Below are positions 1,448 to 51,760 of a stretch of DNA of 64,000 nucleotides, piece after piece. The notes under the pieces were generated by a model. That model did no database searches. It worked only from the letters and a program-made list of their open reading frames with translations, and had not been told where the DNA came from. Origin of the DNA: Thermoplasmatota archaeon (lineage in GTDB: Archaea > Thermoplasmatota > Thermoplasmata > Lutacidiplasmatales > JAMCUS01); assembly GCA_023379385.1 (NCBI GenBank), contig JAMCUS010000024.1, positions 30,776-94,775 of the forward strand, in the 5' to 3' direction. Within the stretch, counting starts at the first letter, position 1, and every line of letters starts with the position of its first letter. Position numbers and translations under genes: made by a program.

Positions 1448-3367
1448 ATTTAGATCTTTGTTAGTACCTATATCGCCTGAAGGAAGAATGCTCATAATAT
1501 AGTCCATACCAACGCCTGTTTTTTTAGATAAAACTCTTGCAAAATCCTCCTTTTTTATATCTCCTGGATATATCCTTATGTGATGCTCATTTTCATTTTT
1601 ATTTTTTATGTATGAGTAAGGGACGATTTTCAATTTTCTGGAGTTATCAAAATCATCTATAAAAATGGCCATCTCAAGTGGTATTTTGTAAATATAGTTT
1701 TTGTTACCATAGATTATCCAGCTACCTTTAGCTATATATTCTCCTGTTGGTGCTGATTTACTTACCTGTTCTGGTGTTACCCAGAAAGCATCCGCCGATA
1801 CATGTTTCACGGCCCAGGCACGAGAATAGCATATTGAAAACTGGCATGCTTCATAAATGGATTTTTCTGAAATAATTGTGTTATTGCTTTTTACTATAGT
1901 AACCGCAGCACCGTGGATATCTGCATGAATGAATAGATCACGTTCCTTCAGGTAGTGTTTCACAACATAATCATTATCCTTTGCATTTTTACCGGATATA
2001 ACGATATTGCCATCTGAGGTTACGAACCAATGGTACCTTTCATACCATTTTCTTTTTGCATTATCAACATGATCCGTGCTATTGTTGTGAACAATAACCT
2101 TCTTATGTTCCAGTCCAGATAAGTCCTGCTCTATCTTTTTTAACTGTATATTGTATCCCTTTATCATTTCGTATAATCTGTTAACAGACAGTTCAATTTT
2201 TTTGTTCAAATAAAATGGTATTTCATATTCATTAAATTTGAAAATAGCTACATGTTCCTTGGGGATATATTTTATAATCATACCTTTTTCCATTAGTTTA
2301 TTAATTACAGATTGTTCCACCTCTGCAGTGCCAAATTGTTTTAGTACATCCAAGAAAATGTTATAATTATTGTATATCTCTGCTATCCATTTTTTGTGAA
2401 GATCCATTTCATTCCTAACTCTGTTAATTTCGGCATAAAGGTGATCTTTTTGTTTTCTTAGGTTCTCCTCCTCCTCTTTTATTATATTATCATTTTCCCT
2501 ATTTTTTATTAACTTATATCTTTCTATCAAAACATCTGATATTGTGGTATATATTTGCCAGTTATCTGCATTGCTATTATCATTTATTATATCAATCTCT
2601 CCTGTAACTTTATTAAACCATAAGCAATGCAGATCATCAGCAGTTTTTAGTAATGATATCCATAAACGATATATTTCACTATATACAGAAACATCAACCT
2701 CTTTTGCAGGGAAATGGATATCCATAGCTAATTTTTTTAATATATAATTTGCAACCTCCTTTCCCATAGCAACATCTGATGATAAAAATTGAATGATGGT
2801 TCTATCACTCGCCATTCCGGTTTGAAGCATAACTGTTTCATCCATTGATAGAGGATCTGCTCTGACTGGAGGAAATACATATTTTTCGTTGGGAAGAAGT
2901 GTCCTGCTCTTCCAAATCTTTTTTTCAGAACACCACTTTATTATCCAGTTCTGCAGAAGTGATACAGCCCCTGTACGAAAATTTTCTATAACTATTTGGA
3001 ATAACCCCAATTCTGATTCAAATTCAATGATTATTGTTCTATCAAATTTATACTGCCATACATCCTTTATTATGGATCCTGTTAAATATTTTCTAAACAG
3101 ATTGGCCACAGAATCTGGTTCGTTTTTATGAATCCATCTATCTGTTATAAATATAGCGTATTGTTCAATTATGACAAGTTCAAACTCATTAACTCCTTTT
3201 ATACGAATTGTTATGCCACCGGTGTCATGAAATATTTTTAATACCCTTCCGTTAACAGTTTTTTTTTTCAGTTCCATTACAAGAGCATGAATTGTTAGAC
3301 TGCCTATTTCGTTGTAAATTTTATGGTGATTCATTGCTAAATAGTTGCAAATTTTATGGGCATTCAT
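1430..3367 (-). CDS. NFACT-family protein (archaeal Rqc2/NEMF/FbpA homolog, DUF814)
   Basis: N-terminal 'SLTIHALVMELKKKTVNGRVLKIFH' NFACT-N signature, central coiled coil, 'LFIHADIHGAAVTIV' NFACT-R/DUF814 motif. The true start may be the Met at about 3334 (MNHHKIY...). Confidence 0.65.
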   Translation of the reverse strand: MNAHKICNYLAMNHHKIYNEIGSLTIHALVMELKKKTVNGRVLKIFHDTGGITIRIKGVNEFELVIIEQYAIFITDRWIHKNEPDSVANLFRKYLTGSIIKDVWQYKFDRTIIIEFESELGLFQIVIENFRTGAVSLLQNWIIKWCSEKKIWKSRTLLPNEKYVFPPVRADPLSMDETVMLQTGMASDRTIIQFLSSDVAMGKEVANYILKKLAMDIHFPAKEVDVSVYSEIYRLWISLLKTADDLHCLWFNKVTGEIDIINDNSNADNWQIYTTISDVLIERYKLIKNRENDNIIKEEEENLRKQKDHLYAEINRVRNEMDLHKKWIAEIYNNYNIFLDVLKQFGTAEVEQSVINKLMEKGMIIKYIPKEHVAIFKFNEYEIPFYLNKKIELSVNRLYEMIKGYNIQLKKIEQDLSGLEHKKVIVHNNSTDHVDNAKRKWYERYHWFVTSDGNIVISGKNAKDNDYVVKHYLKERDLFIHADIHGAAVTIVKSNNTIISEKSIYEACQFSICYSRAWAVKHVSADAFWVTPEQVSKSAPTGEYIAKGSWIIYGNKNYIYKIPLEMAIFIDDFDNSRKLKIVPYSYIKNKNENEHHIRIYPGDIKKEDFARVLSKKTGVGMDYIMSILPSGDIGTNKDLNLLEFK

Positions 3368-4463
3368 TTACTGAACCTCCATTTAACTTGCTTGATAGCG
3401 AACGGAGACTGTATCCTCCCGCCAATCCTAAGAATTCTAAATTCTTTGCACCTGCATGGTCTGCATTATCTACATGGCCACATCGCAAACATAAAAATTT
3501 AATCCCCTTACGATTTCTCCTGTCTATGTTGCCACATTCAGGGCATCTCTGCGAAGTCTTCCAGGGATCTTTGCGATATACGGATATCCCAAGCTCTTCA
3601 CACATCTGCTCTAACCGAATGCCAACCCTGGCATAATGCCAGAAAGACAGAAGTCTATTTACCCCACGTGAAAACCTTCCACGTTTATTCATCGTGACAT
3701 TTTTTAAATCTTCTATTACTATTGCCTTTACTCCCTCTAAATTCAGCTTTTTTATGTACCTGTTCTCCTCTGTTGTTATATACTGGTGATATGATTTCCT
3801 GTGCTTATCTACCGATAACATTTCTGCTTTCATTTCGCTTCCTAGGTCCTGTCCATCTGATGTAAACAGCATTGAATTTACTCCTCTATCTATTCCTATT
3901 ATTTTCCCTTTTGCACGTTTTTCATGTCTTTCTTTTTCTAATATTAAATCAATAAATAAGCCATTTTCTTTATTCCATCCTAATCTTATTGACTTCCCTA
4001 TCTGCCAACCGTCGTTAAGTAATGCATTTATTTGCTTATTCAGATTGAATAATATTACCACACCGGGAACGCCTGAACCGAATTTCACACACTTATCAAA
4101 AGAACCATCAAAACCATCTATTCTTGTGAATCTGCCATCTAAATTGGCTATTGTTTTATGGAACCTGGGCATTCTTTTATCTTTTTTTTCTAACTGTGAT
4201 GATATGATTTCTTTAGACTGCTTTCCTATGCATTGTGATAACCTGGCTGTAATATTAAATTTAAGGGATGTCCCATCTGTTACCTCCTTAGATAAAAATC
4301 CACTGGAGAAATCCTGTGCAGACCATAGCCTCTCTATTGTATAATTCACTGCCCTGTTATAAGTAACTAAAAACTCCTCAAGCTTATTGACCTTGTTTAT
4401 ATTTACCTCTTTCAGATATATACGGGATGTCCTCTTCATTTTATTATTATTGGTTAGATTCAT
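3354..4463 (-). CDS. tnpB: TnpB (RNA-guided RuvC-like nuclease, IS607/IS605 OrfB family)
   Basis: RuvC-I 'IGIDRGVNSM', RuvC-II 'IVIEDLKNV', C-terminal zinc finger 'CPECG...CLRCGHVDNADHAGAKNL' (RuvC-III). Overlaps the upstream tnpA by 17 nt. Confidence 0.75.
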   Translation of the reverse strand: MNLTNNNKMKRTSRIYLKEVNINKVNKLEEFLVTYNRAVNYTIERLWSAQDFSSGFLSKEVTDGTSLKFNITARLSQCIGKQSKEIISSQLEKKDKRMPRFHKTIANLDGRFTRIDGFDGSFDKCVKFGSGVPGVVILFNLNKQINALLNDGWQIGKSIRLGWNKENGLFIDLILEKERHEKRAKGKIIGIDRGVNSMLFTSDGQDLGSEMKAEMLSVDKHRKSYHQYITTEENRYIKKLNLEGVKAIVIEDLKNVTMNKRGRFSRGVNRLLSFWHYARVGIRLEQMCEELGISVYRKDPWKTSQRCPECGNIDRRNRKGIKFLCLRCGHVDNADHAGAKNLEFLGLAGGYSLRSLSSKLNGGSVNECP

Positions 4464-4994
4464 TCTTTATTACCTCTACTATCTTATCTTTCTTCCTCTT
4501 GCCCTTCCTCAGCCCGTAATATCTAGCGCACATTGATGTTACCATTGATATCATATCCTGCATCAGGTCGTTCCTATCATTATCCGTTTCATTCACTACC
4601 TCTATATGCTTCCCCAGCTCATTGAATAATATGTTTATGTAGTTGAATCCAAATCTGGTAAGCCTATCTTTATGCTCAACTATAAGTGTATTATAATTCT
4701 TATCTATAAATAATTTATTCAATTGCTTACGATTATCATCAACTCCACTGCCTGTTTCTTTGACTATCTTGTATATGGAATAACCTTTAGCTATTGCATA
4801 ATTTTCTAAACGTTGAGCCTGTGCATCCAGATTATTTTTATTTTCCGAACTGGAAACACTTGCATAAATGCATACCTTATGTGGGAATTTATTTCAATCA
4901 GATCATTTACAATAATTGTACCGGTTGGTAATGTGAAAGCATTTAATTTACCATCCTTCCATAATCTCCAAGCTGTTTTATAAGAAATACCCAA
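4447..4994 (-). pseudogene. tnpA: IS607-family TnpA serine recombinase, disrupted by a 1-nt frameshift between the MerR-like HTH and the catalytic domain
   Basis: N-terminal HTH 'MGISYKTAWRLWKDGKLNAFTLPTGTIIVN' (ORF 4806..4994). In another frame, 'KVCIYASVSSSENKNNLDAQAQRLENYAIAKGYSIYKIVKETGSGVDDNRKQLNKLFIDK...' carries the resolvase YA[SR]VSS active-site motif and continues into ORF 4447..4722. The frame change lies near 4885-4900 (ccc run). Confidence 0.6.
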
Positions 4995-5151
4995 TTTTTA
5001 GCCTATGTTGATAATTTCATATGTCACTATCTGTCCATATGTGTCTATTAAATATTTAAAGTTTTTTAATACCTTCAATTCACTTTCAATAAAAGAACAT
5101 TATTGGTTTCAGTCAACTCCGGTTGCATCAGGCTATTAATTATGCTGATTA

Positions 5152-6069
5152 TCAATCGATTTGCTCCATCCATTCATAATGGTTTATCTCTTTCATGTGA
5201 ATGATATTCTCAAATTTATTCATGATTTTTTTTGTGATACTGCCAATTTTTCCGTTGCCCACTATTCTTCTGTCAACCTCTACTATGGGGGTTATTTCTG
5301 CAGCGGTACCTGTTAAAAATAGTTCATCTGCAATATACAGTTCTTCTCTAGCAATATTATTCTTTCTAAATGGGATGTTCAGATCATTAGCAATTCTTAT
5401 AACAGAATCTCTGGTGATTCCTCTGAGAATGCCTGCTGTAGTAGGAGGCGTCATCAGCTCTCCGTCCTTAACATAGAACAGATTTTCACCTGTTCCTTCG
5501 GTTACGAGACCATACATGTTCAACATAATAGCTTCATCAAAACCTGTCTTCTGTGCCTCAACCTTTGCCAAAACGGAATTAGCATAATTTCCAACCGCCT
5601 TTGCCATTGGTGGTATACTCAATGGATTAACTCTCTGCCAGGAGGATACCATGCATCGTATGCCATTACTCTTTGCAGATTCTCCCAAATAAGCACCCCA
5701 CTTCCATGCAGCAATAGATAGATCAACTCTGTTTTTCAATGGGCTTATACCCATCTCACCATATCCATAGTATGCCAAAGGCCTTATATAACAATCTGTA
5801 AGCTCATTAATCTTAACTGTATCCTTAATAGCCTTTTTTATTTCACTGAATGTATATGGAATAGCCATTTCATAAATTTTAGCACTTTCCAGTAACCTTT
5901 TAATATGATCGTCTAATCTGAATATGGCAGCCTTACCATCTATGCCATATGATCGAATTCCTTCAAACACTGCTGTCGCGTAGTGCATGGCATGTGTAAG
6001 AACATGAACTTTAGCATCTTTCCATGGAACCATTTCACCATTCATCCAAATAAACTGTGATTCCTGCAT
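5152..6069 (-). CDS. ilvE: branched-chain amino acid aminotransferase (class IV PLP enzyme)
   Basis: 'MHYATAVFEGIRSY', 'TGTAAEITPI' and other BCAT signature regions. Length 305 aa. Confidence 0.85.
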   Translation of the reverse strand: MQESQFIWMNGEMVPWKDAKVHVLTHAMHYATAVFEGIRSYGIDGKAAIFRLDDHIKRLLESAKIYEMAIPYTFSEIKKAIKDTVKINELTDCYIRPLAYYGYGEMGISPLKNRVDLSIAAWKWGAYLGESAKSNGIRCMVSSWQRVNPLSIPPMAKAVGNYANSVLAKVEAQKTGFDEAIMLNMYGLVTEGTGENLFYVKDGELMTPPTTAGILRGITRDSVIRIANDLNIPFRKNNIAREELYIADELFLTGTAAEITPIVEVDRRIVGNGKIGSITKKIMNKFENIIHMKEINHYEWMEQID

Positions 6070-6295
6070 GTTGCAGTGTATATTGTAACCGCATTTAAAA
6101 TTATCCTATTAATTTCTTAAATTTCTTAGCATAAAGGATAATAACCCTTTACATATTATGGAAAATATTGGATAGGATCAAGCAATATTAATTTATAGTG
6201 TTTGACATAATACTGTATACCTATGAATAATCAAATATAAGGATAAATAGTGATGTCATGGACTATAATATGTTTTTAAATGAGAGGTGGTCACA

Positions 6296-8317
6296 ATGTC
6301 CGATAGTAATGATAACAGTTACAACGAAAGAAAGAGACTTTTAGAAGCAATGGATGAAACCAAACTATCAAAGTTTCATTTAAAAACATGGTTGGTATCT
6401 GGAATGGGTTTTTTTACAGATGCCTATGATCTATTCATTATAGGAATGGTTATTGCAATACTTGCAACTCCGTGGCATTTAACAAAATTTCAGGAAGGAT
6501 TGCTGGGGAGCACCTCGCTTATTGCTGCTGTTTTCGGTGCATTGATATTTGGAAAGTTGCTGGATGTATATGGCAGAAAGGCAATCTATGGCATTGAATT
6601 AATAATTCTTATAGCAGGTGCACTTTTGTCTGCATTATCTACCAATATAGATCAGCTAATTTTATGGCGGTTTGTACTTGGTATAGGTATAGGTGGTGAT
6701 TATGCAGCCAGTGCAATAATCATGAGTGAATATGCCAACAGAAAGGATAGAGGCAAACTTGTAGGTATGGTCTTTTCAATGCAAAGTTTAGGTCTTTTAG
6801 TAGGTCCTCTCATAACAATGATCCTATTACAGCTACCTATACCTGTTATGCTGGATTGGAGAATACTGTTGGCTATAGGAACCATACCACCATTACTTGT
6901 TGTTTATTACAGGCGACAGATATCTGAATCTCCCAGATTTTTACTTGCAGTTAAAGGTGATGTTAGCAGTGCAAAAAAAAGCATAAATCAGGTAGTTACA
7001 GTAGAAAATGAACAGAATATCAAAAACAATAATGTAAAAATAAATTCAAGTGGATGGATATTGTTTACCAACAAAAAGCTTCTCTTACTAACGATTGGTG
7101 TATCTTTGAGCTGGTTCCTCATGGACTGGGCATTTTACGGCAATACCATATCTACCTCTTTTATAATGGGCAGTATAGCAAGTAAAGCCTCTCTTTACAC
7201 AATAGCTCTGTATACCTTCGTAATATTTGCTGTTTTTGCTTTTCCAGGTTACTGGTTAGCTACCTCTCTTCTTGATACATTGGGAAGAAAGAGTATACAG
7301 GCAATGGGATTTGCTGTTATGTCTGTATGTTATATAACGATCAGTATTGTTCCTGCTATAATGCATAACATAACCTATTTTATAGGTATATATGGAATAA
7401 GCTATTTTTTTATAGAGTTTGGACCTAACGTTACAACTTTTGTGTATCCTTCAGAGATCTTTCCTTCGCATGTCAGAGGAACAGGTGATGGTATTGCAGC
7501 GTCAAGTGGCAAAATAGGGGCATTTATCGGTACATTACTGTTTCCGATACTCAATATTTTTGTACATATAACAGGGGTATTTGCAATACTTGCATTTTTA
7601 TCTTTAATCGGTGTAGTGGTAACAATTTTAATTCTTCCTGAAACCAAACAAAAATCACTGGAAGAGGCTTCGGGAGAGGATGAACTGACTGTTGTACTAA
7701 CACAATTTTCATCACAGTTATTATCTCTTATAACAAATGCTGAAGATGCTTCAGAAAAATTTGTTAAGCTGTGTAAGGAACCGGACCAGAATACGAAGGC
7801 AAAGTACGTAAAACAGATAAAGGTTATAGAGCATAACTCAGATACAATTGTTCATCAAATACATGTGAATATAAACAGAGGGAAAGTATCTCAATTAACC
7901 AGAATGGATGTTATAGCTATAGCATCCAGTGTTGACGATATAATTGATGAAGTAGAGGCTGTTTCTGCACGATTTGATATTTTTAACTACCCCGTACCTG
8001 ATAAAAGGATAATTGAGTTATCTAACATCATAAAAGAATCTATTAAAGAGATACATTATGGTATTACTGTACTTGATAGACTATTAAAAAAAGATTATAA
8101 GGATCTGGAAAAGGTGTGTATTAGTGTTAATACGCTTGAAAACAGAGCTGATGATATTCTCAGAGAAGGTATTAAAGAATTATTTAATAATGAGAAAAAT
8201 GTATACAGGTTATTGGTCTACAAAGAGATATACGAAAAACTAGAAGAGGTAACCGATAGATGTGAAGACGTAACTGATGTCTTTAAAGATCTGATAGTAA
8301 AATACATTCAGGAGTGA
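6296..8317 (+). CDS. MFS phosphate:H+ symporter (PHS-like) fused to a C-terminal PhoU-like DUF47 domain
   Basis: N-terminal about 470 aa with 12 TM helices and 'GFFTDAYDLFIIGMV', typical of the Pi-transporter MFS family. C-terminal about 200 aa is a helical PhoU/DUF47-like domain. RBS-like GAGAGGTGG lies upstream of the ATG at 6296. Confidence 0.6.
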   Translation: MSDSNDNSYNERKRLLEAMDETKLSKFHLKTWLVSGMGFFTDAYDLFIIGMVIAILATPWHLTKFQEGLLGSTSLIAAVFGALIFGKLLDVYGRKAIYGIELIILIAGALLSALSTNIDQLILWRFVLGIGIGGDYAASAIIMSEYANRKDRGKLVGMVFSMQSLGLLVGPLITMILLQLPIPVMLDWRILLAIGTIPPLLVVYYRRQISESPRFLLAVKGDVSSAKKSINQVVTVENEQNIKNNNVKINSSGWILFTNKKLLLLTIGVSLSWFLMDWAFYGNTISTSFIMGSIASKASLYTIALYTFVIFAVFAFPGYWLATSLLDTLGRKSIQAMGFAVMSVCYITISIVPAIMHNITYFIGIYGISYFFIEFGPNVTTFVYPSEIFPSHVRGTGDGIAASSGKIGAFIGTLLFPILNIFVHITGVFAILAFLSLIGVVVTILILPETKQKSLEEASGEDELTVVLTQFSSQLLSLITNAEDASEKFVKLCKEPDQNTKAKYVKQIKVIEHNSDTIVHQIHVNINRGKVSQLTRMDVIAIASSVDDIIDEVEAVSARFDIFNYPVPDKRIIELSNIIKESIKEIHYGITVLDRLLKKDYKDLEKVCISVNTLENRADDILREGIKELFNNEKNVYRLLVYKEIYEKLEEVTDRCEDVTDVFKDLIVKYIQE

Positions 8318-8469
8318 AGTTAGAATGTAAAAGAATGCCAGAAACAACCATTTTAAATTAAAAAATTAGTTTTTGAGTGTCTGTTTTTGGCGATTTTAGT
8401 GATTTCTATGTCGTATTAACATAATGTTAAATACTCCCACCATGATGCAAGATGACATCCAGATCCACT

Positions 8470-9846
8470 ATTTAAAGATTGATAGGGGTGTGGGGGAAGC
8501 TATAAATCTCCTCCCTTCAGGATGGAGATACATGGACTTCCCCCATCTTCCTTATCAACATCTTTATATATATATGTGCATATAAATGCCCTGTTATGAT
8601 TATATCAATACAGATTATATCCCAATAAAAAACTTACTAAAATTTTGAATGACCAAATAGAACTATGCAGGCGATTATATAACGCTGGTCTAACAGAACG
8701 TAAAGAAGCTTATAGATTATCCCAGACTTCTCTTACCTATAATTTACAACAAAATGAATTGCCTGCTGTTAAATCAGACAATCCTGAATATAACGATATT
8801 CATTCACAGGTTTTATGCGATGTTCTTAACCGATTAGATAAGGCTTATAAAGGATTCTTTGAACGAATTAAAAATAAAGGTAAAAAAGGTAAGAAAGCGG
8901 GTTTCCCACGTTATAAATCCAGAGGCAAATATAACTCCATTACCTATCCTCAACTCGGTTTTAAATTAATTCATAAAAACAACGGTTCTAAAAAAGGTAT
9001 ATTACAGTTAAGCAAGATAGGATATATTAAAATCATTGTAAGCAGAGATATAACATACGGTAAAATCAAGACGTGTACTGTTAAAAGAGATAAAGCAGGC
9101 GATTGGCTCGCTACCTTTACTGTGGAATTACCCGATACAGTTAAGAAGCCATTAGAACAGATTAAAGAACAGGATATTATTGGTGTTGATGTCGGCATAA
9201 ACAAATTAGCCGTGTTAACTGATGGTATAGAAGTTAAAGAGATAGATAATCCAAAGTTAATAGCGAAGTATGAAAAAGGTATTAAAACACTACAGAAACA
9301 ACTATCCAGAACAAAGAAACGCTCTTATAACAGAGCCAAGATAAGAAAGAAAGTCGCTAAAAAACAGCGTAAGTTAGCGAATGCACGAAAAGATAATCTG
9401 CATAAAGCATCTAATCAAATAGTGGAGAGTGAAAATATAATAGTCTTTGAGGATTTAAATGTTCAGGGAATGGTTCAGAATCACAATCTAGCAAAGAGTA
9501 TATCAGACGGTTCCTGGGGCAAACTGATAGACATGTGTGTTTACAAAGCCGAAAATGCTGGTAAATACATAGAGTTTGTAAATCCAAGAAACACAAGTCA
9601 GTTATGCTCACGTTGCGGAGCAGTTGTAAAGAAGGACTTATCCGTGAGAATCCATAGTTGTAATAACTGTGGATTAGTAATGGATCGGGATCTTAACGCT
9701 GCTCTGAACATAAGAGAGAAATACATACGGAACGTGTGGAACTCTGTAAAAATGCCTGCTGATGCTCTGACCTCTACTCATCTAAATGAGCAAGCTGGAG
9801 CGATGAAGCAGGAATTTCCGATGCTTTAGCTGAGGGGTAGTTCACA
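8470..9846 (+). mobile_element. IS200/IS605-family tnpB-only element (no tnpA), with a palindromic left end. The right end lies 97 nt upstream of tRNA-Ala.
   Basis: Ends were defined by comparison with the deleted copies at 50441..51000 and 45737..45945. The shared LE begins at ATTTAAAGATTG and the RE ends at ...GGGTAGTTCACA (9846). Confidence 0.6.
8600..9829 (+). CDS. tnpB: TnpB (IS605 OrfB family). There is no in-frame ATG and a 5-nt deletion just after the ancestral start is likely, so the gene may be a pseudogene or use a non-AUG start.
   Basis: 'YQYRLYPNKKLTKILNDQIELCRRLYNAGL' canonical TnpB N-terminus, RuvC-I 'IGVDVGINKLAV', RuvC-II 'IVFEDLNVQGM', Zn finger 'CSRCG...CNNCGLVMDRDLNAALNI'. 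The remnant copy at about 45.93 kb preserves ATGATAAGAACATATCAATACAGG in frame. Confidence 0.7.
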   Translation, partial: LYQYRLYPNKKLTKILNDQIELCRRLYNAGLTERKEAYRLSQTSLTYNLQQNELPAVKSDNPEYNDIHSQVLCDVLNRLDKAYKGFFERIKNKGKKGKKAGFPRYKSRGKYNSITYPQLGFKLIHKNNGSKKGILQLSKIGYIKIIVSRDITYGKIKTCTVKRDKAGDWLATFTVELPDTVKKPLEQIKEQDIIGVDVGINKLAVLTDGIEVKEIDNPKLIAKYEKGIKTLQKQLSRTKKRSYNRAKIRKKVAKKQRKLANARKDNLHKASNQIVESENIIVFEDLNVQGMVQNHNLAKSISDGSWGKLIDMCVYKAENAGKYIEFVNPRNTSQLCSRCGAVVKKDLSVRIHSCNNCGLVMDRDLNAALNIREKYIRNVWNSVKMPADALTSTHLNEQAGAMKQEFPML

Positions 9847-9943
9847 TAAATTATAACACTCTATATTTAAAAATTTTTGATAAGACAAAGTTATGTAAAA
9901 ATATATATATTTAGATAAGATGATATGTGTAGCACTGAAATAT

Positions 9944-10028
9944 GGGCCGGTAGATCAGCTGGAAGATCGCTATCTTGGCAAAAGATCCAAAATGGTAGAG
10001 GTCGTGAGTTCAAATCTCGCCCGGTCCA
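9944..10028 (+). tRNA. tRNA-Ala (anticodon GGC) with a putative 12-nt intron after position 37
   Basis: Acceptor GGGCCGG/CCGGTCC with the G3:U70 Ala identity pair, discriminator A73, D-arm GATC/GATC, T-arm GTGAG-TTCAAAT-CTCGC. Anticodon stem CTATC...GGTAG encloses TTGGCA[aaagatccaaaa]T. Confidence 0.7.
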
Positions 10029-10235
10029 TTGCAACTATGATTCGTGGTGTGATTGCTATAAATTTATTTGATTTACCCAAACTTTCTCTAAATTTTAATC
10101 CATCATCGGTATAAGTATTTCTGTCATAGCTTGATACGGCTTGATACGTAAACTATATAATATAGGTCTACATTAATATCCCTATAATTAGTATAGATGT
10201 CCGTATTGAATAATCTGATTATAGAGGGTTAATCA

Positions 10236-11201
10236 ATGTATAGAAAAGGTAAACGATTTATTAAAAATAGAAAGGCAGTAGCGTCAGTAGTTGGCACCAT
10301 GATGGCTATGATGGTATTTCTAAGTATCTTTACACTTATAACAACGCAATACATTCCTGTGTGGATGCAATCTAATGAGATAACTTTTATAGACAATTCA
10401 ATAGGTGGTATGATTTCACTAGATCATGCCCTTACCATGGAGGCAATATCCAATACAACTCAGATAACAGAAAGAACTCCTTTTAGGATGGAATCTGCAG
10501 ATGTACCAGTACTGTCACCTCCAACAGCAGGTGTGTTGACTTTTAATCCTCTTAACGGGTTATTTTACGTGAGCTTTCAGGTACCAACATCCAGTACATC
10601 TTCCGGGCCTAGTGGTTTTACTACGTTTAATTTAGGAACCTATAACCCAGGTTCTCCATCAACAAATTATGGAGGTGGATACGGTGGAAGTGTAGATTAT
10701 TATGTTCCTGCAAGATATGTGCAACCTGAAAGGATCGTGTATGAAGGCAGTGCAATTATTGTATCAGAGAGCTCAGCAATGGTGGTAAAGGTATCTCCAG
10801 AATTCAAAATAATGACATATACTGTATCAGGTACCACATACTATGAACTTTACCTAGGAATATATGGACTTTATGGACAACCGGCAACAGGAAGTGGTCC
10901 TGGTATTCAGAGTATTTATACAACTTTACTTGGTGAACAGCAATATAAGGAAAATTATGGAACAAATCTCGAGTCTACCACAATAAATATACTTACACCC
11001 TATCCAACTGCATGGATTAACTATTTAAATGGATATCTTTCTATACATGATCCTGGATCATACAGTGTAAGTAATCCACCAAGTGCTGGCCCACCTGGTA
11101 GCAATGAATTTCTTGTAACTGTAACTATTACAGGGTTATCAGCAGTGAATATTGTAGTTGCAACTTATGGATTTAGTATGTATAGTGGTTCATCTCTATA
11201 A
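10236..11201 (+). CDS. archaeal type IV pilin-like protein (class III signal peptide), Ser/Thr/Gly-rich and probably glycosylated
   Basis: N-terminus 'MYRKGKRFIKNRKAVASVVGTMMAMMVFLSIF' (basic residues then hydrophobic helix), several N-x-S/T sequons, RBS AGAGGGTT upstream. Confidence 0.55.
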   Translation: MYRKGKRFIKNRKAVASVVGTMMAMMVFLSIFTLITTQYIPVWMQSNEITFIDNSIGGMISLDHALTMEAISNTTQITERTPFRMESADVPVLSPPTAGVLTFNPLNGLFYVSFQVPTSSTSSGPSGFTTFNLGTYNPGSPSTNYGGGYGGSVDYYVPARYVQPERIVYEGSAIIVSESSAMVVKVSPEFKIMTYTVSGTTYYELYLGIYGLYGQPATGSGPGIQSIYTTLLGEQQYKENYGTNLESTTINILTPYPTAWINYLNGYLSIHDPGSYSVSNPPSAGPPGSNEFLVTVTITGLSAVNIVVATYGFSMYSGSSL

Positions 11202-11211
11202 TGGTGATAAA

Positions 11212-12837
11212 ATGAGTGTAGATATGAGAGGTAGAAACGGCGTTAAGATCAGATTGCCAAAAAAGGAAATTGGTGAGTTTGTTAATTCTTTAAAAAAAAG
11301 CACGGGGTCCAATCCAATAACAGAGATACCTAAAATTACGGATCCTGCTATTGAAATACTTGAATTTAAACCAATTAGACCACCCTATTCGTATGCAAGA
11401 ATTTTATATAATAACAGATCTAAAGATTTTCTTTATGAAGCGATAGAACCTCATCTTAATGATGAGGAGCAGGAGTTCTATAATTTTATTGAAGAATCTC
11501 TTAAAAAAACATTAACGTACGATGTAGACCATCTAAAATATCAGGATAAAGAAGAATATCTCAAAGGGAATGTTGAATCCTTTTTGCAGAGTAGAGCTAC
11601 AAAAATCACACCAATACTGCGTGAAAAACTTATATACTATGTTTTAAGGGATTATATTGGATATGGTCCAATTGATGTGCTCATACGTGATGAAGAGGTG
11701 GAAGATATCTCCTGTGACGGTGTAGGTATCAATGTATATATTTTTCATCAAAAATATGAATCTATTAGATCAAATGTTATTATAAACTCAGACGAGAAGA
11801 TAAATTCATTCGTAATCTCTTTAAGTCAACGATCTGGAAAGCAGGCTTCCGTAGCAAATCCGATTGTAGATGGGACTACCACCGAAGGGCATAGATTGCA
11901 GGCTACCTATGCTAGAGAGATATCTACAAGGGGTGGTAGTTTTACGATACGACGTTTTAAGGAAAGGCCGTTTACTCCTGTTGATATTATCATCAGCAAA
12001 ACTGCCAGTGTTGATATGATGGTATACATGTGGGTGGCAGCTGAAAATGGTGAATCTCTTATAATCTGTGGAGGCCCCGGTGCTGGTAAAACATCTACAT
12101 TAAATGCTGTAGCTCTTTTCATACCACCTACCTCAAAGATAGTATCCATGGAAGATACCAGAGAGATCAATCTACCTCATGAAAACTGGATCCCTGGAGC
12201 TACACGATCTGGAACCGGTGAAAGGGGTATAGACGGCAGGGCACCAGGTGAGATTGATATGTTTGATCTTGTAAGAGCTGCCTTAAGACAGAGACCAAAT
12301 TTCATTATTGTTGGAGAGGTTAGAGGTAAGGAAACCTATACAATGTTTCAGGCTATGGCTACAGGACATACAACCTATTCAACAATGCATGCAGATTCCG
12401 TTAAATCAATGGTAAACAGGCTCGAGAATCCTCCTATCAATACACCAAGAATTCTATTATCAGCTTTAAACAATGTTATTATACAGCATCAGGTCAGGGT
12501 AGGTATGAATGTTGTAAGACGTATTAAACAGATTGTGGAAATTGTTGGATTTGAACCTGAAACAAATGAACTTATAACAAATACTGTTTTTGAATGGGAT
12601 TCCAACAATGATACTTTCATATACAGAGGGCACTCCTTCCTGTACGACAAAGTTATGGAAATGAAGAATTTAACACACGAAGAAATGGAAGAAGAGGTAA
12701 ATAGACGTGTTGAAGTTTTAAATTATCTGGTTAGTAGAAAGGTAGTAGATTTTAAAAAGTTTGCCCAGATCATCATTTCATATTACAAAGAACCACATGA
12801 AACAATTGAAAAAATAAGAGGTGGAAAATTTGCCTGA
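11212..12837 (+). CDS. FlaI/TadA/VirB11-family secretion ATPase (paralog 1)
   Basis: Walker A 'GGPGAGKTSTLNA', Walker B/Asp box 'IIVGEVRGKE', His box 'TMHAD'. N-terminal domain conserved with paralog 2. Confidence 0.8.
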   Translation: MSVDMRGRNGVKIRLPKKEIGEFVNSLKKSTGSNPITEIPKITDPAIEILEFKPIRPPYSYARILYNNRSKDFLYEAIEPHLNDEEQEFYNFIEESLKKTLTYDVDHLKYQDKEEYLKGNVESFLQSRATKITPILREKLIYYVLRDYIGYGPIDVLIRDEEVEDISCDGVGINVYIFHQKYESIRSNVIINSDEKINSFVISLSQRSGKQASVANPIVDGTTTEGHRLQATYAREISTRGGSFTIRRFKERPFTPVDIIISKTASVDMMVYMWVAAENGESLIICGGPGAGKTSTLNAVALFIPPTSKIVSMEDTREINLPHENWIPGATRSGTGERGIDGRAPGEIDMFDLVRAALRQRPNFIIVGEVRGKETYTMFQAMATGHTTYSTMHADSVKSMVNRLENPPINTPRILLSALNNVIIQHQVRVGMNVVRRIKQIVEIVGFEPETNELITNTVFEWDSNNDTFIYRGHSFLYDKVMEMKNLTHEEMEEEVNRRVEVLNYLVSRKVVDFKKFAQIIISYYKEPHETIEKIRGGKFA

Positions 12838-43657: not shown

Positions 43658-43837
43658 CTCAATTACCTCTTAACAATAATTTATCTCTTAACACCTATGT
43701 ATATAATCCTATATATATTTTATTGATTGTTAGAGGTATGGGGATAACTATAAAACTCCGTTGCTTTGGCTTAGGAGGGATGTCAATACGACATGGAAAG
43801 AATATAGAGTATTCAACAATTCTAAAATAATCGCATT

Positions 43838-45736: not shown

Positions 45737-45945
45737 CTAGATTTACAAACTCCACGGATTTACCAGCATTTTCGGCGCTGTAAATACATTGATCTATCGG
45801 TTTGCTTTCCAAGAGGCGTAGTCTGGTATACTCTCTGCAAGATTGTGATTTTAAGCCATGTTATTAGCATTTTTAATATTTTAACAGTTTTTTTATCAGG
45901 ATATAACCTGTATTGATATGTTCTTATCATAATAATACAGTGAAT
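45737..45945 (-). mobile_element. truncated remnant of the IS200/IS605 tnpB element (5' end of tnpB with ATG plus an internal fragment)
   Basis: The reverse complement matches element 1 at 8596-8670 and 9525-9600 ('...AAAATGCTGGTAAATCCGTGGAGTTTGTAAATC'). Confidence 0.55.
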
Positions 45946-46132
45946 GTTTATATACTATTTATATATTATTGCATTTATCTATATAATTATAAAAACTTTT
46001 TGCTTGCTTTCATCCCCTACCTTACGAAAGGGGTCTTCCCGTTAGCAGAGATATAAATGAGAAAGGGTTAAATTTGATGAAATCTATCTGTAACATTTGA
46101 TACAATAACTTTATCAAAAATTCCTAAAATAG

Positions 46133-49975: not shown

Positions 49976-50343
49976 CTTTTAATAGATGATACTGCCGCTA
50001 CAATTTCGTTAAGAATCGGTTCACCTTTACCTGGTATTATAACTGCTACAGATGAGGCATTTTTATTTATACCTGCCGATTTACCGAGTTCCTGTTTATT
50101 CTTTACGTATACATATGGAATGTTTTTTTCTTCGCAAAGCATTGGTATATGCTCAAGTATCTCTGGAGGTTGTACATCCTCTGCAATAACTACAAGCTTG
50201 GCCTCACTTCTTTCGATCATTTTCGTAACCTCATTGGTACCTTTTGCAAGTTTACCAGATGCTCCGGCTACCTTTACCAATTCATATGCTTTATCCCCTA
50301 TTTCCTTCGGAGTTTCAAATCTTATATATGATTCTTTTGCCAT
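49972..50343 (-). CDS. rpl7ae: 50S ribosomal protein L7Ae (K-turn binding)
   Basis: '[33 protein letters not shown]' L7Ae/L30e fold signature. Confidence 0.9.
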
Positions 50344-50440
50344 ATTACACACCTCTACACTGCATAATCATGCTGTTCATTGATGTAGTGGTTAGTAATT
50401 ACTACCATCATATAAACTTTTAGTTTAAAACTATGGTGCC

Positions 50441-51000
50441 TGTGAACTACACCATGCTAAAGCATCGGAGCTTCCAGCTTCATCGTTCCAGCTTGCTCAT
50501 TTAGATGAGTAGAGGTCAGAACATCCACAGGCATTTTTACAGAGTTCCACACATGCCGTATGAATGCTATATGAGATCTAACCTCTCTCTTATGTTCAGA
50601 GCAGCGTTAAGATCCCGATCCATTACTAATCCACAGTTATTACAACTATGGATTCTCACGGATAAGTCCTTCTTTACAACTGCTCCGCAACGTGAGCATA
50701 ACTGACTTGTATCTCTTGGATTTACAAACTCTATGTATTTACCAGCATTTTAGGATTTGTGAGTACACATGTCTATCAGTTTGCTCTAGGAGGAGTCTGA
50801 TATACTGCCTGCACAGTTCCAGCTGATAGTTTAGAATTTTAGTAGTCTTTTTATTTGGATACAGTCTGTATTGATATGTGTCTATTATAGATAGACATAT
50901 ATATATGTGTAGTTATAGTTATGTTAAGGAAGATGGGGGAAGTCCATGTATCTCCATGCTAAGGCGTCGGAGTATTATAGCTTCCCCCATTCCCCTAACA
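50441..51000 (-). mobile_element. internally deleted (about 820-bp deletion) derivative of the IS200/IS605 tnpB element that retains both ends (MITE-like)
   Basis: The reverse complement of 50925-51000 equals the LE palindrome of element 1 (GGGGGAAGCTATAA...ATACATGGACTTCCCCCATCTTCC). The reverse complement of 50441-50770 equals the tnpB 3' end plus RE. Deletion junction is at about 50770. Confidence 0.65.
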
Positions 51001-51040
51001 ATCTATAAATGTTATATACTCTTTTTGATTATATTCAGTC

Positions 51041-51760
51041 ATGCAATTAAAATATTCTGTTAAAGTAATTGAAAACGTAACAGATACTGAATCTACGTAT
51101 CTACTCAGACTTGAAAGAGGAGCTTCATGGCCATTTGATTATGATCCCGGTATGTTTATAACTGTATTTATTCCACGTAACGAAAAACCGCCTTTGACAA
51201 GGTCCTATTCTATCGCATCACCACCGTCACAAAAAGGATATCTTGAACTCTGCATAAAACGTGTTGAAGGAGGATTTGGTTCCAATTATTTATGTGACAG
51301 AAAACCCGGTGATGTTTTAGATATAACAAAACCGTTAGGAGTATTCACCTTAAAAGAAACAGGACATAAAAACATTTTATTTTTAGCAACTGGTACAGGA
51401 ATTGCTCCCTTCAAATCTATGATTGAATCAATTTATGAGAATAAATTAAAAAATAAGCAGTTATGGCTATTTTTTGGTGTCAGAACACAAAAAGATATAA
51501 TCTACAGGCATAGAATGGAGGAACTTGCTGGTATAACTAAGGATTATTTTCATTATATAGTATCATTAAGTAGGGAACCTTTGGATAGCAACTGGAAAGG
51601 AGAACGTGGACATATAGAAGATATAATAAAAAAATATATTCCTGATGTTAATGATACTGATGCATATATATGTGGATTACCTGTAATGGTGAATGAAACA
51701 GTTGCACTTCTGGAAAAACTAGGAATTCCTGAAAAATATATATTTAAAGAAAGATATTAA
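51041..51760 (+). CDS. FAD/NAD(P)-binding oxidoreductase of the ferredoxin-NADP reductase family (no C-terminal Fe-S Cys cluster)
   Basis: 'RSYSIASPP' FAD-binding RxYS motif, 'LFLATGTGIAP' NAD(P) motif, 'YICGLP' motif. Confidence 0.65.
   Translation: MQLKYSVKVIENVTDTESTYLLRLERGASWPFDYDPGMFITVFIPRNEKPPLTRSYSIASPPSQKGYLELCIKRVEGGFGSNYLCDRKPGDVLDITKPLGVFTLKETGHKNILFLATGTGIAPFKSMIESIYENKLKNKQLWLFFGVRTQKDIIYRHRMEELAGITKDYFHYIVSLSREPLDSNWKGERGHIEDIIKKYIPDVNDTDAYICGLPVMVNETVALLEKLGIPEKYIFKERY

Follow-up and report, generated by a model that had tools for sequence, protein, structure and literature searches.

Architecture of the short tnpB copy

In the window (the whole 64-kb stretch of DNA analyzed here), a 564-bp remnant of a tnpB element lies on the minus strand between the r-protein operon and an FNR-like gene, where a sequence-only reading had placed it. 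Domain searches agree with both neighbors: the gene on the right-end side, rpl7ae, carries a Ribosomal_L7Ae domain, and the gene on the left-end side carries FAD_binding_6 and NAD_binding_1 domains. The parts of the short copy and its immediate flanks are as follows.

50441-51004, minus strand: internally deleted tnpB element of 564 bp, consisting of the left end, the first ~27 codons, the junction, and the last ~350-366 bp (tnpB 3' end plus right end)
51005-51009, minus strand: TTTAT pentanucleotide adjoining the left end on its 5' side, candidate target site or transposon-adjacent motif (TTTAW)
50926-51004, minus strand: left end, a long imperfect hairpin with arms GGGGGAAG at 50935-50942 and CTTCCCCC at 50981-50988
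50800-50925, minus strand: AT-rich promoter-like spacer, ATA start, and remnant of tnpB codons 1-27, assigned by alignment to intact family members
50800-50807, minus strand: deletion junction with the imperfect microhomology AGT(T)ATAT; ~816 bp lost relative to 8681-9496
50584-50710, minus strand: 127-bp tract 100% identical to 9593-9719 of the full copy, the longest exact match; apparent crossover or gene-conversion tract
50441-50595, minus strand: right-end module, presumed omega-RNA scaffold (155 nt, of which 17 are an insertion) with the conserved tail ...CCGATGCTTTAGCATGGTGTAGTTCACA at its end
50421-50440, minus strand: flank GGCACCATAGTTTTAAACTA, upstream of rpl7ae and co-oriented with it; putative guide of a right-end read-out transcript

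With the reverse complement of 50301-51100 as a BLASTN query against 8301-10000, the short copy (minus strand, 50441-51004) aligned in collinear order with the full tnpB element (8475-9846). The left-end block (51010-50800 versus 8470-8680) has 77% identity over 219 columns with an E value of 3.5e-27, and the block covering the 3' part and the right end (50806-50441 versus 9497-9846) has 88.6% identity over 368 columns with an E value of 6.6e-124. The two blocks abut in the short copy and are 816 bp apart in the full copy, and tblastn matches the short copy to residues 281-394 of the full-copy TnpB at 80-86%. The earlier claim of an internally deleted, opposite-strand tnpB copy that keeps both termini and lacks ~820 bp is thus borne out by the pairwise alignment that had been proposed as its check: the homology is collinear at both ends across the deletion and does not consist of spurious matches. 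Two of the limits given earlier shift slightly, the left end reaching 51004 instead of 51000 and the 3' part reaching 50806 instead of 50770.

The reading frame is destroyed by an ATA start, the 816-bp deletion, two stop codons, and a frameshift, while both ends are kept. Alignment with intact relatives confirms the predicted change of ATG to ATA (ATGATAAGAACATATCAA in the short copy versus ATAATAGACACATATCAA). Folded as single-stranded DNA, the left-end hairpin of the short copy has a free energy of -15 kcal/mol (z = -3.83) and that of the full copy -17.8 kcal/mol (z = -3.83); the right-end hairpin is weak, with z about 0.2. The 564-bp structure is also present in nine contigs of other assemblies (L001-L006, L019, L023, and L025 (in part)) and is therefore not an assembly artifact of one sequence.

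The full copy and its tnpB family

The second family member needed for these comparisons lies on the opposite strand.

8475-9846, plus strand: full-length family member, with TTTAA at 8470-8474; tnpB ORF open only from TTG 8645

Its ORF (8645-9829) encodes a TnpB with the Pfam domains HTH_OrfB_IS605 (PF12323), OrfB_IS605 (PF01385), and Cas12f1-like_TNB (PF07282), and it scores 307 bits against the NCBIfam model guided_TnpB (NF040570; cut-off, 100). Intact family members have 406-409 residues and start with MIRTYQYRLYPNKKTTKILNYQLELCRQLYNAALTERKEAY, and Candidatus Thermoplasmatota archaeon MAGs are the annotated source of the nearest proteins. Of the 12 closest TnpB relatives, 7 carry a truncation or a frameshift. 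In the full copy, 4 nt are deleted right after ATG 8597 (ATGATTA----TATCAATACAG versus ATGATTAAAACTTATCAATACAG in L029), which shifts the frame, so that the ORF opens only at TTG 8645 and encodes 394 instead of ~409 residues. The same defect occurs in two further contigs (L007 and L008). Positions 4644-12317 of the window are 100% identical to contig JAJYUE010000002.1 of GCA_021792665.1.

Element boundaries were set by aligning copies at unrelated loci (the window, L007, L009, L016-L018, L021, and L029). The right ends of the family stop in either of two conserved tails, ...CCGATGCTTTAGC..GTAGTTCAC or ...TCATTTAATTTYGTCCCAATGCAT, beyond which the flanks are unrelated, and 9846 and 50441 are therefore the right-end boundaries. 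The left end forms a long hairpin (GGGGGAAGC...GGACTTCCCCC), and TTTAA or TTTAT stands directly 5' of all six left ends in a small sample (the full and short copies of the window, L018, L021, L029, and a mini-element whose TTTAT starts at 43719). A comparison of the ends AGATTGTTAGGGG... and ...GTAGTTCACA revealed no terminal inverted repeats, and a comparison of the flanks ...AACATTTAT and GGCACC... revealed no target duplication. A homologous block of ~45 nt is common to the left and right ends in direct orientation. No Y1 transposase adjoins any family member or occurs among the 20 window ORFs scanned. On these sequence features, the family fits a tnpB-only (IS1341-type) IS200/IS605 element with TTTAW as its putative target or transposon-adjacent motif.

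ISDra2 and IS608-type elements are IS200/IS605 elements that combine TnpB with an omega-RNA (reRNA). Like them, the family described here has a TnpB with HTH, OrfB_IS605, and zinc-ribbon/RuvC domains, an AT-rich pentanucleotide beside the left end, and a predicted structured RNA region that would lie over the tnpB 3' end and stop at the right-end boundary. Unlike them, it is tnpB-only and archaeal, its putative motif is TTTAW, and its RNA has no Rfam match. An archaeal TnpB family thereby gains a provisional TTTAW motif and a right-end boundary, which could guide the prediction of omega-RNAs and transposon-adjacent motifs in mining for genome-editing tools.

Origin and decay of the short copy

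The two copies of the window had been taken for the same element, one derived from the other. Direct descent of the short copy from the full copy is ruled out by the left-end identity of 77% together with subfamily-specific residues: the N-terminal remnant of the short copy, IDTYQYRLYPNKKTTKILNYQLELCRQ, is of the P0002/P0009 subfamily type, whereas the full copy reads LTKILNDQIELCRR. In the closest subfamily (L016), the N-terminal breakpoint has the sequence GGCAGTTATATAAC and the C-terminal one AAGAGTATAACAGAC; the short copy reads GGCAGTATATCAGAC. This comparison places the deletion within an imperfect AGT(T)ATA(T) direct repeat. Set against the intact family protein, the remnant breaks off at about codon 27 (...LELCRQ) and continues from SISD.SW.KLIDMC; an internal joint in tnpB had been recognized correctly, but it had been put near codon 20. 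A deletion at an imperfect direct repeat is the signature of slippage or microhomology-mediated deletion, and from it we infer that such a process formed the short copy.

The coding remnant has decayed further. It contains two in-frame stops, and in its first 96 nt, 10 of 12 substitutions fall at codon position 1 or 2. After AACATAAGAGAGA, a 17-nt insertion shifts the frame and lies inside the presumed scaffold. This insertion (TTAGATCTCATATAGCA, in the region 50566-50583) is polymorphic among the contigs compared (L020, L022, L025, and L026 versus L021 and L024). Wherever a contig includes the upstream part, alleles that are gutted or reduced to the right end have the insertion; L021 and the L024 allele, which is attached to a full tnpB body, lack it.

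The order of events would then be as follows. An intact tnpB may have lost ~816 bp in situ through a microhomology-mediated, slippage-type deletion. The putative signals of single-strand transposition would have survived (the left-end hairpin, the TTTAW target motif, and the right-end tail), as would the last ~350 bp, which in intact copies would comprise the tnpB 3' end overlapping the omega-RNA scaffold. The stop codons and the 17-nt insertion would have been gained later. The short copy is probably a vertically inherited, noncoding remnant of a tnpB-only (IS1341-type) IS200/IS605 element of an uncultured Thermoplasmatota archaeon, with a core deletion like that of PATEs (palindrome-associated transposable elements), that acts as a substrate for homologous recombination.

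The short copy was found at one locus

The short copy had been described as MITE-like, and by structure this description is apt: it is noncoding, keeps both ends, and on sequence would qualify as a PATE-like protein-less IS605 derivative. Its distribution is another matter. Within a census of the 64-kb window and roughly 100 kb of related contigs (about 160 kb), a sequence search returned the junction of the short copy, J1 (CTGTGCAGGCAGTATATCAGACTCC), from the window and L001-L006, and solely at the locus of the FNR-like gene. It adjoins that gene in every case in L001-L006, L019, and L023. All contigs with the FNR-like gene carry the left end and J1, all contigs with rpl7ae carry the right end, and no empty site was seen. 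Neither BLAST nor a right-end covariance model (R1) detected a second copy in the window and ~100 kb of related contigs. In public genome contigs, a scan with the right-end pattern returned only a chance match in a Prevotellaceae MAG, and in public metagenome contigs, scans with the right-end and left-end patterns returned no match; the source species is evidently absent from both collections.

Other deletion derivatives of the family were present in the same material, two of them in the window.

45740-46052, minus strand: third family remnant, with a junction at about 8664|9470 in full-copy coordinates; right end truncated just upstream of an AMMECR1 gene
43724-43785, plus strand: ~62-bp terminal-only mini-element, with TTTAT from 43719, between ftsZ and an amidohydrolase gene

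In L021, the deletion junction is at about 8628|9433, and L026 has several internal deletions behind a different left end. J1 was considered as the junction of the remnant at 45740-46052 and of the L021 element as well and was rejected, the junctions differing by about 15-65 bp on each side. The remnant at 45740-46052 also has a different left end (GGGAAGACCCCTTTCGTAAGGTAGGGG) and an intact ATG (MIRTYQYRLYPDKK). In the mini-element, the start of a left end (TGATTGTTAGAGGTATGGGG...) is fused to an L018-type right-end tail (...GGCTTAGGAGGGATGTCA) via the block shared by both ends.

At least three other derivatives therefore have their own junctions, which indicates independent decay and not amplification. 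The overall picture of the family, as judged from the contigs retrieved, would be one of recurrent independent decay and not the spread of one MITE progenitor. A single 64-kb window thus holds a decay series of IS605 elements, with frameshifted full, core-deleted, truncated, and 62-bp terminal-only copies.

These observations bear on whether the short copy is an active nonautonomous MITE or PATE, moved by a Y1 TnpA encoded elsewhere in the genome. Mobilization by TnpA in trans is physically possible, the termini and the TTTAT being intact: the left-end hairpin, the TTTAT flank, and the right-end tail are all preserved, the ~45-nt direct block in both ends would be expected if one TnpA reads both, and PATEs are mobile in other archaea (PMC3119063). 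Nevertheless, we consider current activity quite improbable, given that every assembly has J1 at the same single locus and none shows an empty site, that BLAST and the covariance model found no second copy in the window and its flanks, that no Y1 transposase was found among the tested ORFs or beside family members, and that each deletion derivative has its own junction. The short copy shows no sign of mobilization or amplification within the ~160 kb searched, and further J1 copies may lie outside that span. It merits masking or labeling as a PATE-like dead tnpB copy and not as a gene.

The presumed omega-RNA and its guide

RNAalifold predicts a consensus structure common to ten family right ends over their final ~140 nt. 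Its stems are AGAG/CUCU, a CAUAC/GUGUG hairpin, and the long-range pairings CCUGY/RCAGG and GYUCUG/CUGGARC, with an inner hairpin whose sequence varies by subfamily. The consensus has 21 pairs, 95.7% of cells paired, and three compensatory pairs, and only 2 of 500 shuffles were as good; this is modest support, since divergence among the sequences is low and their 5' part is coding. With covariance model R1, the short copy's right end reaches 146 bits (E = 1.4e-30), in agreement with the earlier statement that the region for the presumed omega-RNA scaffold is retained. It has a U-U mismatch in the CCUGU/GCUGG stem. At the gathering score, Rfam returned only a tRNA and no family for the right-end RNA, and a permissive Rfam scan of 9350-9900 gave only chance-level hits, the best being RAGATH-18 with an E value of 1.1.

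If transcribed, the right end of the short copy would encode a putative omega-RNA with a guide of its own. The flanks beyond the right ends differ as had been noted before, GGCACCATAGTTTTAAACTA for the short copy versus TAAATTATAACACTCTATAT for the full copy. An apparently intact TnpB of the family is present in the same genome (P0003 / L029), and use in trans is therefore conceivable. The L029 scaffold is ~85% identical to that of the short copy where the two align and has its own 12-nt insertion. The guide GGCACCATAGTTTTAAACTA has no second match within three mismatches over its first 16 nt in the window, L016-L018, and L029. A TldR-like regulatory reading is unsupported, there being no second guide target in these sequences.

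The short copy could accordingly be a functional guide-only module, whose right-end omega-RNA would be loaded in trans by an intact TnpB such as that of L029 and would either direct recutting of an emptied donor site or serve as a decoy or regulator by the rpl7ae operon. The conserved right-end structure with its compensatory pairs, the score of 146 bits with the family model, the intact TnpB in the same genome, and a right-end/rpl7ae junction that is invariant across strains agree with such a role, as does the published view that PATEs frequently encode omega-RNAs for use in trans (PMC10055086). However, the scaffold of the short copy is interrupted by the 17-nt insertion and carries the U-U mismatch, the L029 scaffold is only ~85% identical with an insertion of its own, the guide matches its own flank only, Rfam finds nothing, and conservation of the tract is explained equally well by recombination. 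We therefore regard a guide-only function as unlikely. A combined model, in which use of the right-end omega-RNA in trans by intact TnpBs (e.g. L029) keeps the gutted copy and TnpB breaks near right ends drive frequent recombination, seems very unlikely to us; if true, guide-only remnants would be programmed hotspots of archaeal genome rearrangement beside an essential ribosomal-protein operon.

The short copy as a recombination substrate

The segments 9593-9719 and 50710-50584, which are in opposite orientation, have zero differences over 127 bp and diverged sequence on either side. Hybrid alleles are observed at this tract. In L002 (ENA ERZ27237490) and L004 (GCA_027378975.1), a short-type left end, J1, and the proximal markers stand next to the FNR-like gene, and full-type distal markers follow the 127-bp tract. 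Past the hybrid right end, both contigs continue into positions 9847-12262 of the window in reverse, with the tRNA, the 321-residue gene, and the T2SSE ATPase. In L024, which comes from the same sample as L002, the rpl7ae-side right end sits on an undeleted tnpB body nearly identical to the full copy of the window. The two hybrids and their reciprocal product therefore indicate an inversion of the 40,594-bp segment 9847-50440. From these metagenome and MAG contigs, a crossover in the 127-bp tract appears to have inverted the intervening 40.6 kb in some strains. The absence of differences in the tract could reflect functional constraint instead of gene conversion.

The inversion is accompanied by other rearrangements. 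The junction of the right end with rpl7ae is joined to a different short element in L021, to another gutted element in L026, and to unrelated DNA from position ~9672 in L020 and L022. The rpl7ae-side right end thus has at least five different upstream partners in strains that are >99% identical, and the right-end side of the full copy also varies among strains (L007 and L009). In these contigs (L007, L009, L020-L022, and L026), both sites have many different neighbors and flanks that are >99% identical. Synteny breaks in this lineage seem to stem in large part from the tnpB family, inside which many metagenome contigs also end. An IS630-like element with HTH and DDE_3 genes lies at 1375-2479 of L005, inside the right end of the short copy, and the displaced right-end tail is found 1.07 kb away with its orientation unchanged.

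The comparison contigs are all metagenome (k141_ names) or MAG assemblies, in which chimerism at repeats is possible, and the rearrangements might be chimeric joins at the repeat, the element itself being a static remnant with no recombination role. That many contigs break inside tnpB (L010-L014, L024, L025, L027, and L028) would be in keeping with this explanation. In contrast, the identical tract of 127 bp is shorter than the k of 141 implied by the contig names, and the joining k-mers must therefore exist in reads. In addition, the hybrid allele is found in both an ENA assembly and an NCBI MAG (L002 and L004), the reciprocal product comes from the same sample, and the alleles are mosaics with SNPs of their own and not simple joins. 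Chimeric assembly is, in our view, a quite unlikely account of these data.

As a recombination substrate, the short copy would take part in crossovers that either invert the segment between the two copies or join its right end to other family copies. In a natural population, a 40-kb inversion and further rearrangements appear to need no more than a 564-bp remnant with only 127 bp in common with its partner, and rearrangement at such tnpB remnants matters for the reading of MAG synteny and contig breaks. Chromosomal inversion mediated by ISs through homologous recombination between inverted repeats is a general phenomenon. The present case resembles it: two opposed copies appear to have crossed over reciprocally where they are identical, inverting 40.6 kb in some strains. 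It differs from the usual case in that one partner is a gutted remnant of 564 bp and the shared tract is only 127 bp long.

Comparison with known PATEs

In Haloquadratum walsbyi, repeat-mediated loss of the core of IS1341-type IS605 elements has given rise to PATEs (Dyall-Smith et al. 2011, PMC3119063). The short copy shares with them an origin from an IS1341-type (tnpB-only) IS200/IS605 element through deletion between short direct repeats, the lack of inverted terminal repeats and target duplication, a retained near-terminal palindrome, and a target motif of 4-5 nt at the 5' end. Likewise, the ~62-bp mini-element of the window (43724-43785) is analogous to the 52-bp terminal-only PATEs of Haloquadratum. 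However, the host here is represented by a Thermoplasmatota MAG and is not a haloarchaeon, the short copy is without evidence of amplification or strain-specific insertion, and its deletion used a 6-8-nt imperfect microhomology inside the ORF, whereas the Haloquadratum deletions involve near-terminal repeats of 19-22 bp.

In Geobacillus stearothermophilus, IS200/IS605 elements that resemble PATEs and have no protein gene often carry omega-RNA sequences (Meers et al. 2023, preprint PMC10055086). Like them, the short copy keeps both of its ends and the right-end region presumed to encode an omega-RNA, lacks a nuclease gene, and would depend on TnpA and TnpB in trans. The Geobacillus elements reside in a genome with an identified tnpA and have small-RNA evidence, whereas for the short copy no tnpA was found among the ORFs scanned or beside family members, and its putative scaffold bears an insertion. 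The short copy joins the known class of core-deleted IS605 derivatives (PATEs), and the added result is evidence for a remnant-mediated inversion and other rearrangements among close strains.

Neighboring genes

A mere ~31 nt separate the left end of the short copy and its TTTAT from the start codon (ATG) of the FNR-like gene (51005-51041). A TATA-like sequence, TTATATAC, lies at 51012-51019, directly beside the element boundary, and the insertion therefore abuts the likely promoter/BRE of this gene. On the other side, the right end is co-oriented with rpl7ae and about 90 nt upstream of it.

Downstream of the right end of the full copy, at a distance of 97 bp, a tRNA gene of 85-87 nt is found at 9943-10029 on the plus strand (Rfam tRNA, 49 bits). 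ARAGORN assigns it the putative identity tRNA-Cys(gca) with the anticodon at position 36, and its length suggests an intron. A distant TnpB-like gene of 369 residues lies at 3354-4722 on the minus strand; it has a Cas12f1-like_TNB domain and scores 97 bits with guided_TnpB, just below the cut-off. It is preceded by a 91-residue fragment of a serine resolvase, and this locus looks like a decayed IS607-type element. In L013, a resolvase gene of 182 residues is present on the corresponding side of the aminotransferase gene.
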